From Thermofilaceae archaeon (lineage in GTDB: Archaea > Thermoproteota > Thermoprotei > Thermofilales > Thermofilaceae), in assembly GCA_038727095.1 (NCBI GenBank), contig JAVYWK010000007.1:1-64000 (forward strand): DNA of 64,000 nucleotides, read 5' to 3'. Within the stretch, counting starts at the first letter, position 1, and the number at the start of each line of letters is the position of its first letter. A model generated the notes under the pieces. It worked only from the letters and a program-made list of their open reading frames with translations, was not told where the DNA came from and ran no database searches. The position numbers and the translations under genes are program-made. Below are positions 50,305 to 56,285 of this stretch, piece after piece.

Positions 50305-50351
50305 AGCTGCAAGACCCAAACGCATATTACTGAGAGTTTGCACGGTTGGGC

Positions 50352-50405
50352 AGAGTGATGAACCAGGCTTGACGGATGCATGACGAGGATCTTGAGTGCT
50401 GATAC
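50352..50405 (+). ncRNA. C/D box sRNA, predicted guide for Cm34 of tRNA-Leu(CAA)
   Basis: C GTGATGA 50355-61, D' CGGA 50373-76, C' ATGACGA 50380-86, D CTGA 50399-402; D guide has 11-nt complementarity to the tRNA-Leu anticodon arm. Confidence 0.85.
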
Positions 50406-50524
50406 CTTATCCTTGGGCTAAAAAATCAATCCAAGATGTAAATAAATTGAAAAATAAAGCGAATAAATAGATAGAACATGTGCCTTTTATGCTATATATG
50501 ATAGCCGAATATTGCTACCTAGTC

Positions 50525-50547
50525 TTTATACCTTTCATTTAAAAGGT
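50525..50547 (+). promoter_or_regulatory. TATA box (TTTATA) and adjacent palindrome ACCTTT-N6-AAAGGT of the hydrogenase operon
   Basis: Inverted repeat at 50530-50547 between the TATA box and the ATG at 50567. Confidence 0.5.
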
Positions 50548-50566
50548 CAGAAGACGCGGCATCTCG

Positions 50567-51079
50567 ATGAATGAGCAGGGGGGAAGTTCCACGACGCCCC
50601 AATACGAAATGTTCAAGGGGCTGCATAGGGCACCCTACAGCCTACTGGAAGCCCTGAGGAGGGTTCAGGCGGTTTACGGTTACCTACCTCTCGAGGGGAT
50701 AAAGATGGCAGCCGATTATGTGGGCGTGCCTCTCGCTCAGGCGTACAGTGTCGCGACCTTTTACCACCAGTACAGCCTCGAACCAATCGGGAAGTACAGA
50801 ATACTGGTGTGCATGGGAACTGCCTGCCACTTAAGAGGGAATGGGCTCAATCTCGAGTTTCTAAGGACCATGCTGAACTTAAAGCCGGGTCAAAAGACTA
50901 CGCAGGATAGGGCTTTTTCAGTGGAAGAGGCGAGATGCTTTGGCTGCTGCGGTTTAGCTCCGGTCGTCATGATACTGAAGCCTGACGGGAGCAACGAAAT
51001 TGTTGGGAGAGCTACGCCCCGCAGCCTTCGAGCGGCCGTGGAGCGTTACCGCAAGCTTGCGCGGGGTGGTGAAGGTTGA
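50567..51079 (+). CDS. HydC/NuoE-like [2Fe-2S] subunit
   Basis: Q..YGYLP, VATFY, CMGTACH, CFGCC.LAP. Confidence 0.93.
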   Translation: MNEQGGSSTTPQYEMFKGLHRAPYSLLEALRRVQAVYGYLPLEGIKMAADYVGVPLAQAYSVATFYHQYSLEPIGKYRILVCMGTACHLRGNGLNLEFLRTMLNLKPGQKTTQDRAFSVEEARCFGCCGLAPVVMILKPDGSNEIVGRATPRSLRAAVERYRKLARGGEG

Positions 51080-53049
51080 CGTGGACGTTGCTCGATAGGT
51101 GCTGCGAAAAGTGCAGCCACAGTCCGGAGAAGCCGTGCCGCGACTACATCGAGTGCCGGCTTAACGGGCCGCTCTGCCACAGTGACGAGGAGTGCAGAGA
51201 GCGCAGGCGCAGGAGGCTTAAGGAGCTGAAGTACGGGGAGAAGGGTGCGAAGGTAAAGGTCCCGATGGCTAGCTGCACGCTAGCGACAGGGGCCGAAGGC
51301 ATCTACAGCGTAGTGCGGAGTACTATTGAAAAACTCGGTTTGGAGGCTACAGTAACAATAGCCGGGTGTCACGGGCTGGACTTCATCGATCCTTGGCTGG
51401 AGTTCTCAGCTGTAGGAATGCCGACGGCCATCTACGCAAACGTTAGGCCGGGCGACGTTCCTAAACTCGTTGAAAAGTACTTCGTAAGGCAGGAGGTCGA
51501 CGGGGCGTTCGCGCTGTGGGAGAGGACAGGGACGGCTAAGGGGGAGGAGAAAGTACCGCTGCTCAACGAACTGGATTTCTGGAGGAAGCAGGTCAAGTGG
51601 GTCTCCCGCAACTGCGGTGTCGTAAACCCGGAGTCGCTTGAAGAGTATGTAGCTGGCGGAGGATACAGGGGGCTGAGCAGAGCTCTGAAGATAGGGCCTG
51701 ACGCGGTTATAGACGAGATCCAGAAGAGTGGTCTACGCGGTAGAGGTGGCGCAGGCTTCCCGACGGGGCTCAAGTGGAGGCTTACAAGGCAGCAGCCGGC
51801 GAAGCCCAAGTACGTTATCGCAAACGCTGACGAAGGAGATCCGGGCGCTTTCATGAACAGGCTCCTAGCGGAGTCCGACCCCTTCAGGATCGTTGAGGGG
51901 CTGACCATCGCAGGCTACGCTATCGGCGCTGAAAGGGGTTTCATCTTCGTGAGAGCAGAGAAGCCCCTAATGGCGAAGAGGCTTCAAAGGGCTGTTGAGG
52001 AAGCGAGGAAGTGCGGTTTGCTGGGTGAAAACATACTCGGTTCAGGCTTCAGCTTCGACATAGAAGTCATTCTGAGCGCGGGAGCTTTCGTCTGTGGCGA
52101 GGAAACTGCGATGATAGCTGCCATAGAGGGGAAGAGGGCTTGGCCGCGGCAGAGACCGCCCTACCCCGCCGAGAAGGGGCTCTGGGGGCAACCGACGGCC
52201 GTGAATAACGTAGAAACGTTGGCCCACGTTGCGACGATAATGGCGGAAGGGGTGGAAAAGTTCACCGCGTTGGGTACTGAAAAGAGCAAAGGCACGAAGA
52301 TGTTCTGCGTAACTGGTTCGGTCAAGAGGGTTGGAGCATACGAAGTTCCGATAGGGGCTAGCCTCAGGTACCTTGTGGAAGATCTCGCGGGAGGGCCTCC
52401 GGATGGAGTGAGAATCAAGGCTGTTCAGATAGGAGGCCCCTCAGGAGGCTGTGTACCGGCTCAGCTGCTCGATCTGCCGGTTGACTACGAGACGCTGCAA
52501 TCGGCTGGTGCCATTATGGGAAGCGGTGGTATGGTGGTGATCGGGGATGACAGCTGCATGGTAGACGTTGCAAAGTTCTTCCTCACCTTTACTTCCGCTG
52601 AATCCTGCGGCAAGTGTATGCCATGCAGAGTGGGGTTGAGGGTCATGTGGAGCATTCTCGATAAGATCACCCGGGGCGAGGGGGCCGAAGATGACATCAC
52701 TACACTGCGGCAAGTAGCAGAGACAGTGAAATCGATGAGCCTGTGCGCGCTGGGTGGTACAGCTCCCAACCCCGTCCTTACAACGCTCCGATACTTCATG
52801 GACGAGTACACGGCGCACATTAAGGATAGAGTGTGCCCCGCTAAAGCCTGTTTAGCCCTAACCAAGTTCATCATCGATGAGGTGAAATGTATAGCCTGCG
52901 GGCAGTGCGCCGCGAACTGTCCGGCTAACGCGATTTCGAAGACTGACGGCGGCAAGTACCGGATAGACCAGGAGAAGTGTATAAGATGTGGCGTTTGTTT
53001 CACAGTCTGCCCCGTTAAAGCAATATCTAAAGCCTCTGGATCGAGGTGA
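51076..53049 (+). CDS. HydB/NuoF-like flavin/NAD-binding subunit, long (bifurcating-type) form
   Basis: GRGGAGFP, NADEGDPGAFM, GAFVCGEET, GGPSGG, ESCGKC.PCR.G...C, H....C....C, C-terminal 2x[4Fe-4S]. Confidence 0.93.
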   Translation: MTWTLLDRCCEKCSHSPEKPCRDYIECRLNGPLCHSDEECRERRRRRLKELKYGEKGAKVKVPMASCTLATGAEGIYSVVRSTIEKLGLEATVTIAGCHGLDFIDPWLEFSAVGMPTAIYANVRPGDVPKLVEKYFVRQEVDGAFALWERTGTAKGEEKVPLLNELDFWRKQVKWVSRNCGVVNPESLEEYVAGGGYRGLSRALKIGPDAVIDEIQKSGLRGRGGAGFPTGLKWRLTRQQPAKPKYVIANADEGDPGAFMNRLLAESDPFRIVEGLTIAGYAIGAERGFIFVRAEKPLMAKRLQRAVEEARKCGLLGENILGSGFSFDIEVILSAGAFVCGEETAMIAAIEGKRAWPRQRPPYPAEKGLWGQPTAVNNVETLAHVATIMAEGVEKFTALGTEKSKGTKMFCVTGSVKRVGAYEVPIGASLRYLVEDLAGGPPDGVRIKAVQIGGPSGGCVPAQLLDLPVDYETLQSAGAIMGSGGMVVIGDDSCMVDVAKFFLTFTSAESCGKCMPCRVGLRVMWSILDKITRGEGAEDDITTLRQVAETVKSMSLCALGGTAPNPVLTTLRYFMDEYTAHIKDRVCPAKACLALTKFIIDEVKCIACGQCAANCPANAISKTDGGKYRIDQEKCIRCGVCFTVCPVKAISKASGSR

Positions 53050-53055
53050 TGAGCC

Positions 53056-53712
53056 TTGGTGAAGGTAAAGATTGATGGTAGAATCGTGGAGGTCGAACCG
53101 GGCACAACAATACTAGAGGCCGCCGAGAAGGCGGGGATCAGCATACCCAAGCTCTGCGTAGTACCCGGCTTGTACGAATCATCGAGCTGCCGTCTCTGCG
53201 TTGTTAAAACCCCCGCGGGCCGTCTCTTCCCTGCCTGCAACTACCGGGTTTACAGGGACGAGGAGTTCATCGCCTCATCACACGATCTCTGGGAAATGAG
53301 AAGAGTGAACTTCGAGCTGGTCTTGAAGTTCCACAGGATCGAGTGCTGGCAGTGCGAGAGGAAGAGCGCTTGCTCACTGGTGGAATTATCCAAGGAGCTC
53401 ATGGTGGAGGGCATACCCGTGTGCTCTGAGTGCCCGCTGCCGAGAGATGAGTGCTTACTTCGTAAAGGCGTGTTGTGCTTAGGGATGATTACCCAATCGG
53501 GTTGCAACGCAGAATGTATAGTCGGCGGCGGCGAATGTTGGGGTTGCAGGGGGCCAATAGCGAGAGCCGACGTCCTGGAGCGAGCTTTCGAGAGGTACGC
53601 TGAGCTGGGCTTCAATTCACGGTTGGTTCTAAGTAAAGCGGAGATCTTCTGGAACTCGCTGGAAGAGTTCGCGATCGTTAAAAGAGTTGCTAACGAAGGT
53701 GGGGTGAAATGA
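53056..53712 (+). CDS. Chimeric Fe-S subunit: HydA/NuoG N-terminus plus [NiFe] small-subunit C-terminal domain
   Basis: [2Fe-2S] (IP.LC...CRLC...AC), H-x3-C-x2-C-x5-C, then PVCSEC...C...CLG..T..GC.A.C......C.GCRG. Confidence 0.85.
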   Translation: MVKVKIDGRIVEVEPGTTILEAAEKAGISIPKLCVVPGLYESSSCRLCVVKTPAGRLFPACNYRVYRDEEFIASSHDLWEMRRVNFELVLKFHRIECWQCERKSACSLVELSKELMVEGIPVCSECPLPRDECLLRKGVLCLGMITQSGCNAECIVGGGECWGCRGPIARADVLERAFERYAELGFNSRLVLSKAEIFWNSLEEFAIVKRVANEGGVK

Positions 53713-54995
53713 GCGGTAAGTTGGCTCTATTCATCGAGGAGGTTCCGGCCGTCGCGGGAAAGGTCAATGTTAAGATCGAGGGGGAGCAAACAAAAGTGAG
53801 AGTCGAGTTCGGCGTGGCCCAGGAGCCAAGGTTCTTCGAAAGGTTCCTTAAAGGCAGACCAGTAACTCTAGCACCCTGGGTCATGTCGAGGATTTGCGGT
53901 GTCTGCAGCCAAGTCCACCTCACGTGCTCGATAGAAGCCGCTGAGAAAGCGCTAGGCCTGAAACCAAAACCGGAGGTATTCTCGCTTAGAGAGGTGGCGA
54001 AGGGCCTCGAAATAGTCCAGAATAACGTCGTTCACGTGCTCATGTCCATACCCGACTTTACGGGCCACGGTAACGTTGTGGAGTTCTCTAAGGCCCATCC
54101 AAGCCTTTTCGGCACGCTCATGGCTGTGAACTCGTCGCTACTCGAGGTTAGTAAGAGGGTGGCTGGAAGGTTTGTCCACCTGCCTAGCCTGGGGGTGGCT
54201 ACGCACGGCAAACCGGTAAGCGTGCACGAATTGATTTCAGCCAGCAAAATGCTGAAGGGCGTCGCAAGCAGCTTGATGGAAACGGCGGAGGAGCTGAGCA
54301 AGGTGTGGGGGCCACTTTGCGAGGGCTTTAAGGACCCAGCGCCCACGTACTGCGTGCTTAACGCGTCGCAGCGGAGGTATCCCTTCTTCTCCGGCGAGTT
54401 GCTCTTCTCCGATGGAAGGGTCGTGAGGGCTGGGGAGTACGCGTACGCGCTGGAGGAGCTCACAAGCCCCTACTCGAATGCCCACTACGTCCTCTACAAG
54501 GGGGAACCCTTCTACGTAGGATCAAGAGCCAGGCTTATGGCCTACCGGAGCTTTCTACCCAAAGAGATAATCGACCTTGAGAAGACACTTGCCGTGGATT
54601 TCTCCAACCCCTTTGATAACGTTAAAGCGCAGTATATCGAAGCGGCGTACGTGGCGGGCCTATTGGCGGAAACCTTAGACGAGCTAGCGTCGAAGGGTGA
54701 GGGAGTGCACCCCCACGTCCTAACGGAGTGCCCCGAGGTTGACGGTGAAGGCGTGGGACTGGCCACAGCGCCGCGAGGCGTCCTGATACACCACTACAGG
54801 GTTGCTAAGGGGAGGTTGGAGTACGCCAACATCATCACTCCAACCGTTATGAACGCGAGGCACATAGAGGTCACGGGCGAAGCCCTCGTAAAGTGGGCCG
54901 TCGAGAACGGCATAGAGGACGAGGGGCGCATCAAGCGTTTGGTAGCAGCACTCGTGAGAGCTTATGATCCATGCCTCCCCTGCTCCGTGCACTAG
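53709..54995 (+). CDS. [NiFe]-hydrogenase large subunit (group 3-like)
   Basis: RFFE..L.GR, L1 RICGVC, APRG.L.H.Y, PT..N, L2 RAYDPCLPCSVH immediately followed by stop. Confidence 0.93.
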   Translation: MSGKLALFIEEVPAVAGKVNVKIEGEQTKVRVEFGVAQEPRFFERFLKGRPVTLAPWVMSRICGVCSQVHLTCSIEAAEKALGLKPKPEVFSLREVAKGLEIVQNNVVHVLMSIPDFTGHGNVVEFSKAHPSLFGTLMAVNSSLLEVSKRVAGRFVHLPSLGVATHGKPVSVHELISASKMLKGVASSLMETAEELSKVWGPLCEGFKDPAPTYCVLNASQRRYPFFSGELLFSDGRVVRAGEYAYALEELTSPYSNAHYVLYKGEPFYVGSRARLMAYRSFLPKEIIDLEKTLAVDFSNPFDNVKAQYIEAAYVAGLLAETLDELASKGEGVHPHVLTECPEVDGEGVGLATAPRGVLIHHYRVAKGRLEYANIITPTVMNARHIEVTGEALVKWAVENGIEDEGRIKRLVAALVRAYDPCLPCSVH

Positions 54996-55004
54996 GTGGT
55001 TGGA

Positions 55005-56285
55005 ATGAAGGTGGCCTTCTTCTCCTTCGGTGCTTGCGAAGGCTGCAGGTACAGAATAGTCGGTGAACTGCACAAGCTGACGGCGCTCCCCAACATCGAA
55101 ATAGTCAGGGAACCACTGCTGGGGCTCACCGAAGACACCGAGTACGACATCGCCGTTGTGGAAGGGGCGGTCACAACGCCGGATGTTGAGAAGCTCAAGC
55201 GGATCAGGAGTAAGGCGAAGTACTTGATCGCACTGGGCAGCTGCGCGAGACTGGGTGGGATTACGACGCTGGGGTACAGGTTAGGCCTAAAACTGGAGGA
55301 GTACGAGGCTAAAGGGTACGCTGACGCTCTTCCGCTCCACCGATTCGTCAAAATCGACAGCCACGTGAGGGGCTGTCCAGCCAGTGTGGACGAGTTGGTC
55401 ACTGTTCTCAACGCGTTTTCCCTGGGGTTCAACCCCTCGAAGTATGAAAGACGCTTCGAGTACGAGCGCTTAACCCAGGATCTCGTAATCAGCGATGACT
55501 TCCTGAAGCTGGATCCTGGGAAGTGCATAGTGTGTGGAAGGTGCGTTGAGTTCTGCGGTCTTGTGGAAGCTCACGCGCTAACCCAAGCGTTTAGAGGGTT
55601 CCGAGTTATAGTGAGTACACCGGCACAACTGCCCTTCCTCGAGGCGGGCTGCATCAGATGCGGGCTTTGCGCTGCATACTGTCCCGTCGCAGCCGTGACG
55701 TACAGGAGCGACGTAGAGGAGGCGATCAAGCTGATGCGCGAGGGGGGCACTGCTGTCGTAGAGACGTACGCACTGGAAAGCGCAGCCACCGCGCTCGGTG
55801 TTAAGCCCGGCCAAGTACTCTCACTGCTAACAGAGCTCGGCTTCAGCAGCGCAACAGTCGTTAACCCCCTCGAGGGAACGCTGAAGTACGACGGCATTGT
55901 ACCCTTCAGCTCGGCCGAGGAAAGATGGTTAAAGAAGCGTTTCCCGAACGCGCCCGTAAAGGGGCGCGTCAAGCTTGAAGGTGAGAGAGGCACGGTTATC
56001 ATAACGGCTTGCGCTGCAAGGAAGGAGGATCACAAGCCGGCTATAACGGCGCACGAGCTTGTTGAGCTTGCAAAAAACTCTAGGATCACTGTGACCGACC
56101 TACCCGAGCAGCCGGTGAACACGAGCAACATCGAGGGTATTAAAGTCGCCGTAGGGCCAACAGCTTGCGCTAAAGCCGTCGAGGAGTACCTTAAAGGTTC
56201 CGTAAGCCGAGTAGTCCTGCAGATCTGCCCAGGAGGATGCTCGCGAGGATCAGGAAGCCCCTACAAGGTACTGGTTACTAGATAA
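55005..56285 (+). CDS. Chimeric subunit: [NiFe] small-subunit N-terminal domain plus 2x[4Fe-4S] plus reduced [FeFe]-hydrogenase H-domain
   Basis: CEGC, VEGAV, GSCA..GG, GCP; CIVCGRC..C and CIRCGLC...CP; TACAARKED and ICPGGC..G.G; SD-like GGTGGT before ATG 55005. Confidence 0.82.
   Translation: MKVAFFSFGACEGCRYRIVGELHKLTALPNIEIVREPLLGLTEDTEYDIAVVEGAVTTPDVEKLKRIRSKAKYLIALGSCARLGGITTLGYRLGLKLEEYEAKGYADALPLHRFVKIDSHVRGCPASVDELVTVLNAFSLGFNPSKYERRFEYERLTQDLVISDDFLKLDPGKCIVCGRCVEFCGLVEAHALTQAFRGFRVIVSTPAQLPFLEAGCIRCGLCAAYCPVAAVTYRSDVEEAIKLMREGGTAVVETYALESAATALGVKPGQVLSLLTELGFSSATVVNPLEGTLKYDGIVPFSSAEERWLKKRFPNAPVKGRVKLEGERGTVIITACAARKEDHKPAITAHELVELAKNSRITVTDLPEQPVNTSNIEGIKVAVGPTACAKAVEEYLKGSVSRVVLQICPGGCSRGSGSPYKVLVTR

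Follow-up and report, generated by a model that had tools for sequence, protein, structure and literature searches.

A stretch of 64,000 nucleotides (nt) from a Thermofilaceae archaeon (assembly GCA_038727095.1, contig JAVYWK010000007.1, positions 1 to 64,000 of the forward strand; hereafter the window) carries, at 50567–56285, five plus-strand open reading frames (ORFs) in the order hydC-hydB-hydD-hyhL-(hyhS-hydA). In this operon a [NiFe] hydrogenase small subunit and the HydA subunit of bifurcating hydrogenases are each divided in two, and the halves are cross-fused. Judged by its gene set and by the defining fusion as described, the locus is a member of the archaeal hybrid hydrogenase family designated group F [FeFe]/group 3f [NiFe] (Greening et al., Cell 2024; PMC11216029) and not a new kind of system. 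The reading we favor, to which we give a probability of roughly 60%, is that the operon encodes a [NiFe]-driven NAD/ferredoxin complex resembling NiFe-HydABCSL, in a short form whose [FeFe] half is probably non-canonical.

The ORFs occupy 50567–51079 (170 amino acids, aa), 51076–53049 (657 aa), 53056–53712 (218 aa), 53709–54995 (428 aa) and 54996–56285 (429 aa), and neighboring ORFs overlap by 4 nt at the first and third boundaries, lie 6 nt apart at the second and abut directly (0 nt) at the fourth. The G+C content lies between 0.54 and 0.59 throughout, with no break. An original prediction, made from the letters of the window, had described five tightly coupled genes in the order hydC-like, hydB-like, first chimera, [NiFe] large subunit and second chimera, and our ORF and domain maps agree with it. 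It had further identified the first chimera as the N-terminus of HydA joined to the C-terminal cluster domain of a [NiFe] small subunit, and the second as the proximal-cluster domain of that small subunit joined to the rest of HydA with a remnant of the H-domain. Profile and Protein Data Bank (PDB) matches bear out the former identification, and profiles, PDB matches and hhalign alignments the latter, as detailed below.

The first chimera is HydD, of 218 residues. Its N-terminal half (residues 1–115; 53056–53400, plus strand) is of the HydA/NuoG type: residues 2–121 correspond to positions 1–121 of the 571 positions in NF040763 ([FeFe] hydrogenase group A6; E = 4.5e-28), and the best PDB match of residues 3–123 is HydA1 (7q4v_A, residues 5–126; E = 4.1e-20). 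Ligands for a [2Fe-2S] cluster (C34, C45, C48 and C61) and for a His-ligated [4Fe-4S] cluster (H93, C97, C100 and C106) are found in this half. The C-terminal half (residues 116–218; 53401–53712, plus strand) is the cluster domain of a group 3 [NiFe] small subunit. Residues 116–198 correspond to positions 154–237 of 240 in NF040831 (ShyD, the group 3b small subunit; E = 3.4e-14), the best PDB match of residues 120–198 is SH1 delta (9e1j_A, residues 160–240; 5.2e-10), and when residues 116–218 were used as the sole query, all six PDB matches were C-terminal parts of group 3 [NiFe] small subunits. The eight invariant Cys residues of this half (C123, C126, C133, C141, C150, C154, C161 and C164) would bind two [4Fe-4S] clusters, the equivalents of the medial and distal clusters. 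Altogether HydD holds 15 Cys and one His in four cluster motifs, and these are invariant, or nearly so in the case of C100, in 22 sequences. A fold model of HydD had a mean predicted local distance difference test score (pLDDT) of 80.2, and in Foldseek it matched the N-termini of HydA and NuoG proteins over about 115 columns, with 8a6t_A at the top; none of the Foldseek matches was to the C-terminal half. Because Foldseek matched the N-terminal half only, the identity of the C-terminal half rests on the sequence matches and on the complex model described below.

The 429-aa HyhS-HydA protein contains the complementary parts. Residues 1–150 (54996–55445, plus strand) form the N-terminal proximal-cluster domain of a group 3 [NiFe] small subunit: PF01058 was placed on residues 14–140 (E = 2.4e-19), residues 4–150 correspond to ShyD positions 1–156, and residues 4–148 best matched SH1 delta (9nez_A, residues 4–157; E = 3.1e-16). 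The Cys residues of the proximal cluster (C14, C17, C83 and C127) were present in 47 of the 47 alignment rows that cover them. The true start of the gene is probably the ATG at 55005, because a 99%-identical relative (P0001) has 426 aa. Residues 151–245 (55446–55730, plus strand) continue a linker (149–161) into a HydA-type F-domain with two [4Fe-4S] clusters, residues 158–259 corresponding to NF040763 positions 128–230; its two Cys quartets (C177, C180, C183 and C187; C219, C222, C225 and C229) were present in all 48 rows. When residues 151–260 were the sole query, the best match was the F-domain of a bifurcating HydA (HydA1, 8a6t_A; 1.2e-17), and when the whole protein was the query, residues 153–276 and 383–423 matched 8a6t_A residues 123–249 and 466–508 (9.9e-21). 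The remainder, residues 246–429 (55731–56285, plus strand), is a shortened H-domain of about 185 aa. An AlphaFold model of the 429-aa protein had a mean pLDDT of 82.3, with the linker disordered (pLDDT below 50), and in Foldseek it matched the HydA of HydABC and CpI (E from 1e-12 to 1e-14) as well as SH1 delta (7.5e-11). The ligand tally for HydD, HyhS-HydA and HyhL is therefore four clusters in HydD, three in HyhS-HydA together with a Cys3Ser site in the H-like domain, and an intact [NiFe] site in HyhL.

Across the two chimeras, the HydA model (NF040763) and the small-subunit model (ShyD) are each covered once and colinearly; the proposal that every part of both proteins is present a single time, in cross-fused form, thus stood. 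The junctions, which had been put near 53405 and 55470, were located at about nt 53401 (HydD residue 116) and at about nt 55446–55478 (HyhS-HydA residues 150–161). In three DNA runs, each of a different study, contigs (X1 records 3 and 7; X3 records 18 and 23; X5 records 27 and 31) bridge both without insertions or deletions, and one of these runs may be the window's own source; 11 of 21 listed runs, from five hot-spring studies, contain 0.64–0.69 of the sampled words. A protein search recovered 48 relatives of HyhS-HydA, 413–473 aa long and of the same Pfam architecture, after which the next scores were bacterial group A HydA proteins (1e-13). A genome scan identified 47 archaeal loci, with the fusion gene in all 47 and the HydD chimera in 41. 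The relatives, then, share the chimeras, and the cluster ligands are all intact. Together with the bridged junctions, these observations leave practically no probability that the chimeras arose in assembly or are genes in decay, and no evidence in favor of either was found.

We modelled HyhL together with HyhS-HydA residues 1–150 and HydD residues 112–218. The model gave an interaction prediction score from aligned errors (ipSAE) of 0.92, against 0.01 for the best of three controls. Of 80 solved complexes 58 attained this mark, as did 2 of 110 mismatched pairs, a calibration that holds only roughly here because our own alignments were used; moreover, a solved structure exists of the unsplit subunit on its large subunit, and the model may owe its score to that known structure, so that it shows likeness and not binding. 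Contacts agreed by at least 92% between runs, and the partner pLDDT was at least 86. The contacts involved HydD residues 134–166 and 193–202, residues 82–96 and 125–130 of the fusion protein, and HyhL, as expected of a small-subunit C-terminal domain. The model thus supports the proposal that the small subunit would be reassembled on HyhL from two pieces, one being the C-terminal half of HydD and the other the N-terminal domain of HyhS-HydA. Since the small subunit is split over two genes, each of which is fused to half of HydA, the complex must be interlocked. The original prediction had envisaged an obligately interlocked complex that couples H2 to NAD(P) and ferredoxin, to be traced in a model of all its chains; the part that the modelling supports is the small subunit rebuilt from two polypeptides, and the coupling itself appears reasonable from homology, the best relatives of HydB being the B subunits of bifurcating enzymes. 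One could also envisage, speculatively, that the gene order A(N)-S(C)/L/S(N)-A(C) is the footprint of one Campbell-type single crossover, by which a circular hyhS-hyhL element entered hydA.

The products of the first two genes resemble the B and C subunits of the bifurcating enzymes of the Bfu type. HydC (50567–51079, plus strand; 170 aa) is a NuoE/HoxE-like thioredoxin-fold [2Fe-2S] subunit (PF01257, E = 4.9e-38); the NCBIfam models for HoxE and NuoE match it with scores under their cut-offs, and a HydC match was found at the equivalent place in 36 of the 47 related loci. HydB (51076–53049, plus strand; 657 aa) is a NuoF-like flavin mononucleotide (FMN)/NAD(H) subunit with matches to PF01512, PF10589, PF10531 and Fer4 families. 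At its C-terminus there is a ferredoxin domain with two [4Fe-4S] clusters (residues ~597–652), and at its N-terminus a CCxxC prefix (residues 4–52, window 51085–51231; NF040902, E = 9.5e-23); no Pfam family of the glutamate-synthase (GltA) domain was found in the 657-aa protein. Among the 37 related loci that have HydB, its length is 578–669 aa in 36, and in the remaining one the protein is cut at 373 aa. The relatives fall into two length classes, of about 606–624 and about 652–669 aa, and the CCxxC prefix appears to be optional in the family because tblastn matches begin at query residues 43–51 in the shorter class. The best PDB matches of HydB were NfnB (9n5u_B; 1.6e-207) and subunit B of NiFe-HydABCSL (7t2r_B; 8.6e-203), the latter aligning at residues 15–596 of its 597 with HydB residues 66–652, and near full-length matches were also obtained to 9bov_B, 7q4v_B and 7p5h_B, all B subunits of bifurcating Bfu-type enzymes. 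A Hox-type protein, 5xf9_A, was a far weaker match (4.8e-76). The features of Bfu-type B and C subunits are thus present: a NuoF-like HydB with its FMN/NAD site and extra C-terminal pair of [4Fe-4S] clusters, and a NuoE-like HydC.

HyhL (53709–54995, plus strand; PF00374; 428 aa) is a group 3 [NiFe] large subunit. It carries the motifs RxCGxCxxxH (R61–H70) and, at its terminus, DPCxxCxxH (D420–H428), in which R61, C63, G64, C66, H70, D420, P421, C422, C425 and H428 were invariant in 19 of 19 sequences. The protein stops exactly at the final His, without a C-terminal extension. Its matches to the ShyA and HydA sulfhydrogenase models fall under the cut-offs; the best PDB match is 5yxy_A over the full length (1.3e-45), and group 3b large subunits are the closest.

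The catalytic domain of [FeFe] hydrogenases is marked by three motifs, L1, L2 and L3, of which L1 (TSCCPxW) contains a ligand Cys and a proton-relay Cys. In an hhalign comparison, the tail of the short forms (45 sequences) aligned with the H-domains of bacterial group A (12 sequences) with a probability of 99.93 (E = 1.4e-35), and the 209 aligned columns extended over 333 template positions, so that about 120 H-domain positions have been deleted. Window residues were mapped onto CpI through this alignment and counted in a 48-row alignment; the CpI numbers and residue roles are those that we take to apply here. The Cys residues of the L2 and L3 types are kept: C339, at CpI C355, is Cys in 47 of 47 rows, and C411 and C415, at CpI C499 and C503, are Cys in 45 of 45. 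The L1 motif is altered (VPFSSAEERW in the window), and the Cys pair is present in none of the 48 rows. F304 stands at the position of the presumed proton-relay residue, CpI C299 (Cys in 1 of 48), and S305 at that of the presumed fourth ligand, CpI C300, which is Ser in all 48. E308, for which there is no CpI mapping, is Glu in 47 of 47 rows. T337 lies at CpI M353 (Thr in 46 of 47), R342 at CpI K358 (Arg in 33, Trp in 10 and Lys in 4 of 47) and Q409 at CpI M497 (Met in 0 of 45). PF02906 had no match in the window protein at E ≤ 0.01, although 13 of 24 relatives do match it. These substitutions and the deletion make it probable that the [FeFe] half has ceased to be a canonical catalyst. In the source genome (1.86 Mb, 92.4% complete), HypD is encoded with a score above the cut-off; at that completeness HydE and HydG had no match, and no match to HydF reached the cut-off.

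According to the reading we favor, H2 would be oxidized at the [NiFe] site of HyhL, on which a small subunit would be formed jointly by HydD, through its C-terminal half, and HyhS-HydA, through its N-terminal domain. Electrons would then pass to the proximal cluster in HyhS-HydA, to the medial and distal clusters in the C-terminal half of HydD, and on to the His-ligated [4Fe-4S] and [2Fe-2S] clusters in its N-terminal half. From there they would reach the FMN of HydB, which works with HydC, and NAD+ and ferredoxin would be reduced together, or the reverse would take place, as in NiFe-HydABCSL. The F-domain and the mini H-domain probably pack onto the N-terminal half of HydD as they do in intact HydA, forming a side branch that would end in a Cys3Ser-ligated site of the [4Fe-4S] type and not in a canonical H-cluster.

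Several points weigh against this reading. The predictions of bifurcation, of the electron path and of how the N-terminal half of HydD packs on the F/H part are all drawn from homologues. The residues S305, E308, T337, C339, C411 and C415, and the G-x-G that follows the last Cys, are kept across sequences that are 30–80% identical; the site must therefore be under strong selection, which is more than a mere remnant needs. In the quick tree described below, the short clade stands apart from forms of 563–580 aa with 'SWCP' that keep the ligand Cys. Furthermore, the group F HydA-HyhS of a member of the Thermoplasmata, Th1, has been reported to make H2 after artificial maturation, and most archaea with active [FeFe] hydrogenases to lack HydEFG (PMC11216029). 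Given the Th1 activity and these archaea, neither the absence of maturases nor the divergence of the sequence suffices to exclude an active site here.

These same points bear on what the shortened domain might otherwise be. A true dual-catalyst hybrid, in which the mini H-domain holds a working H-cluster or a related diiron cluster and the [NiFe] and [FeFe] sites feed one bifurcating module, would accord with the homology of the C-terminal domain to the H-domain, with the retention of three of the four [4Fe-4S]H ligand positions, including that of the bridging Cys, with the ligand Cys of P0102 ('PCC'), P0104–P0109 and P0115 ('SWCP'), and with the published activity of the matured Th1 fusion. 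We nevertheless regard it as unlikely in view of the residue counts at the positions of CpI C300, C299, K358 and M497, the failure of the window protein to reach PF02906, and a domain length of about 185 aa as compared with an average of 286 aa given for the 'ultraminimal' H-domains of group E (PMC11216029). It is slightly more doubtful still that the 185-residue module, far from being a fossil, has turned from an H-domain into a novel metallocluster site of very small size, which would bind a Cys3Ser (or Glu-assisted) cluster and act as the low-potential ferredoxin or the second H2 site of the complex. On this view, an invariant Ser-x-x-Glu has replaced the Cys-Cys motif, and the module persists in 47 or more archaeal species genomes; were the idea true, the catalytic scaffold would be smaller than that of the published 'ultraminimal' [FeFe] hydrogenases.

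The remaining alternatives concern the other subunits. The operon could specify a non-bifurcating, Hox-like NAD(P)-linked [NiFe] hydrogenase in which HydC, HydB and HydD serve as a diaphorase only, without ferredoxin. The NCBIfam models for HoxE and HoxU do match HydC and the two HydA-like parts, and group 3d enzymes follow the same E-F-U-Y-H logic; however, the closest solved relatives of HydB are all bifurcating B subunits with the extra pair of [4Fe-4S] clusters, with 5xf9_A far behind, and we consider this possibility about as improbable as the metallocluster site. We also asked whether any swap need be assumed at all, since the 429-aa protein could be a complete FrhG-type small subunit with its own two [4Fe-4S] clusters and a tail, and HydD a HoxU/NuoG-like conduit. 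TIGR03294 (FrhG) matched residues 4–234 at positions 2–220 of 228 (E = 6.8e-16), the PDB FrhG chain 6qii_G matched residues 11–232 (4.5e-10), and such an arrangement would match the count by Greening et al., who assign to the [NiFe] component three of the fusion protein's [4Fe-4S] clusters (PMC11216029). Nonetheless, the two-cluster segment on its own was best matched by 8a6t_A, with no FrhG chain among the best 60 of its 67 PDB matches, and the match to HydA continues colinearly into the H-domain. In addition, HydD residues 116–218 matched [NiFe] small-subunit C-terminal domains only, and in the complex model this half is predicted to dock at the small-subunit position. We therefore reject this alternative as very improbable. 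The balance of evidence leaves a [NiFe]-driven complex of the NiFe-HydABCSL kind as the preferred reading.

The metagenome-assembled genomes (MAGs) that carry the 47 loci are labelled Thermofilaceae, Desulfurococcales, Sulfolobales, Pyrobaculum, Wolframiiraptor, Archaeoglobales and Bathyarchaeia. All five genes in the order C-B-D-L-SA are found in 32 loci, eight others are cut by contig ends and are consistent with it, two have the fusion gene only, and five are from Bathyarchaeia. In all five of the latter (L039:6309–8308, L041:5125–7128, L043, L046 and L047), hydD is followed by hyhS-hydA without a large-subunit gene between them. The flanking genes in L041 encode a glycosyl hydrolase and a tRNA synthetase. 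Four of the Bathyarchaeia genomes were searched (those of L039, L041, L043 and L046), and in each a HyhL-like gene was found on a contig other than that of the hybrid locus (E ~1e-88 against the HyhL profile, 28–30% identity); in L094 the HyhL-like gene adjoins an ordinary, unsplit small subunit. In a Desulfurococcales MAG, an extra match to the small-subunit-like half of HydD (L021:5133–5438; query residues 111–218, 36% identity) lies downstream of hyhS-hydA, at a distance of about 2.5 kb. Two MAGs of different families, a Pyrobaculum sp. (L026) and a member of the Desulfurococcaceae (L027), have identical F+H parts in their fusion proteins, suggesting faulty binning or a transfer in the very recent past.

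A search of 1.84 billion representative proteins uncovered longer swapped forms (563–580 aa) with 'SWCP' in which the ligand Cys is kept, forms of intermediate length with 'SWCKG' and, near the short clade, P0102 ('PCC') and P0101 ('PCS'). The F+H part was used for a quick IQ-TREE analysis of 80 rows with bacterial group A as the outgroup, branches being supported by the Shimodaira–Hasegawa-like approximate likelihood ratio test (SH-aLRT) only. The short forms constitute one clade (SH-aLRT 99) that is sister to P0101 and P0102 (98), the long and intermediate forms make up a separate clade (99), and the window groups with three Thermofilaceae/Thermofilales MAGs (96). From the tree positions of the short clade, P0101 and P0102, the loss of the L1 Cys looks derived, with the Ser fixed early. 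By its HydB without GltA, its H-domain of about 185 aa and its Phe/Ser at L1, the window copy is a short form belonging to this Thermoproteota-centred clade. Eight unswapped HydA-like proteins of 435–480 aa (P0118, P0131, P0138, P0147, P0154, P0186, P0190 and P0226), which contain the [2Fe-2S], His-[4Fe-4S] and 2x[4Fe-4S] modules and a short H-domain, vary at L1 (for example 'RCPAF', 'VCPAV' and 'GCCPAV'). In the quick tree their branches lie between those of bacterial group A and those of the swapped forms, and they may be related to the HydA from which the split halves derive. In the 859-aa protein P0111, a match to the swapped type of HyhS-HydA (361–676) follows some 360 residues that, judged by eye, resemble a response-regulator receiver and a histidine-kinase ATPase, a hint that some forms of intermediate length are sensory.

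Upstream of hydC there is an AT-rich spacer of 262 nt (50305–50566, plus strand), in which a TTTAAAA-type element about 25 nt 5' of the ATG is a possible archaeal promoter, and a T-rich stretch lies 3' of the operon. A metatranscriptomic library from sediment (X12) contained one 1882-nt contig that aligned over 52774–54655 with 112 differences (~94% identity) and is that of a close relative, taking in the end of hydB, the whole of hydD and most of hyhL; RNA libraries can contain DNA and the contigs come without transcript ends, so this contig is no proof of transcription. The source genome has a second [NiFe] hydrogenase on another contig (G000:C6:67020–68220, minus strand; L082 and L090), where the N-terminus of a large subunit (PF00374, 8.2e-11) adjoins a small-subunit-like ORF.

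The original prediction had regarded the operon as a candidate for a novel system, and this part of it does not hold: the five-gene set, the HyhS-HydA fusion and the four-cluster HydD were published in 2024 as the hybrid hydrogenase of archaea, with Thermoplasmatota UBA147 as the exemplar, and presented as the first known case in which the two great hydrogenase families are physically associated (PMC11216029). In that description the HyhS-HydA fusion is the defining feature, HydD is a NuoG-like 'conduit' with four clusters, a bifurcating or confurcating complex is predicted, and the classes listed include Thermoproteia and Bathyarchaeia. Among the papers listed by our literature search, no other described this system and no later structure of a hybrid hydrogenase was found, and PDB sequence searches with HydD, HyhS-HydA, HydB and HyhL likewise returned none. 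The window locus agrees with group F/3f in HydC, HydB, the four-cluster HydD, HyhL, the fusion of an N-terminal HyhS to a C-terminal HydA, and the contiguity of the genes. It differs in that its HydB lacks a GltA domain, which is present in the structural model of the UBA147 HydB and is not stated there as defining, and in its H-domain of about 185 aa, with Phe/Ser at L1 and without the Lys and Met at two second-sphere positions. The published model has a 'true' H-cluster domain with conserved Cys ligands (PMC11216029), whereas in the window the fourth ligand position is Ser. Because a large Thermoproteota-centred clade has a much reduced H-domain, a Ser at a ligand position and no relay Cys, the term 'true [FeFe] hydrogenase' may overstate the function if applied to every member. 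The reciprocal split is not stated in the main text of the paper, where 'split', 'swap', 'permut' and 'medial' occur 0 times; it is implicit in the methods, which place the HydD cofactors from chain A of 7T2R and from chain E of 5ODC, a [NiFe] small subunit, and so template HydD on both HydA and small-subunit chains (PMC11216029). The window thus offers a clean and complete example of the hybrid, from a hot-spring Thermofilaceae-like archaeon, with a split of the small subunit on which that main text is silent.

Three other systems invite comparison. The group 3b sulfhydrogenases of Pyrococcus furiosus (SH1) and Thermococcus kodakarensis (9nez, 9e1j and 5yxy) are the best solved relatives of HyhL (~1e-45) and of both halves of the small subunit. 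Unlike in these enzymes, the small subunit in the window is split over two genes, no beta or gamma (sulfite-reductase-like) subunits were found at the window locus, and the NCBIfam equivalog scores are all far under the cut-offs. The bifurcating [FeFe] HydABC enzymes of Thermoanaerobacter kivui (8a6t), Thermotoga maritima (7p5h) and Acetobacterium woodii (7q4v) are the best solved relatives of the N-terminal half of HydD and of the F/H-like part, and their HydB and HydC match as well; their HydA, however, is one chain with a full H-domain and all of the H-cluster Cys residues, whereas that of the window is split and shortened. In NiFe-HydABCSL of Acetomicrobium mobile (7t2r/7t30), a [NiFe] site supplies HydBC by way of a HydA-like protein, the H-domain of which does not act as a canonical catalyst, and its chains match the window's HydB, the HydA N-terminus, the small subunit (7t2r_E, 1.6e-12) and the large subunit (7t2r_D, 2.1e-21). 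In that enzyme HydA (692 aa) and HydS (179 aa) are two distinct, unswapped proteins, in contrast to the cross-fused halves in the window. Having no GltA-type module, the short clade to which the window belongs is closer to NiFe-HydABCSL than is the published exemplar.

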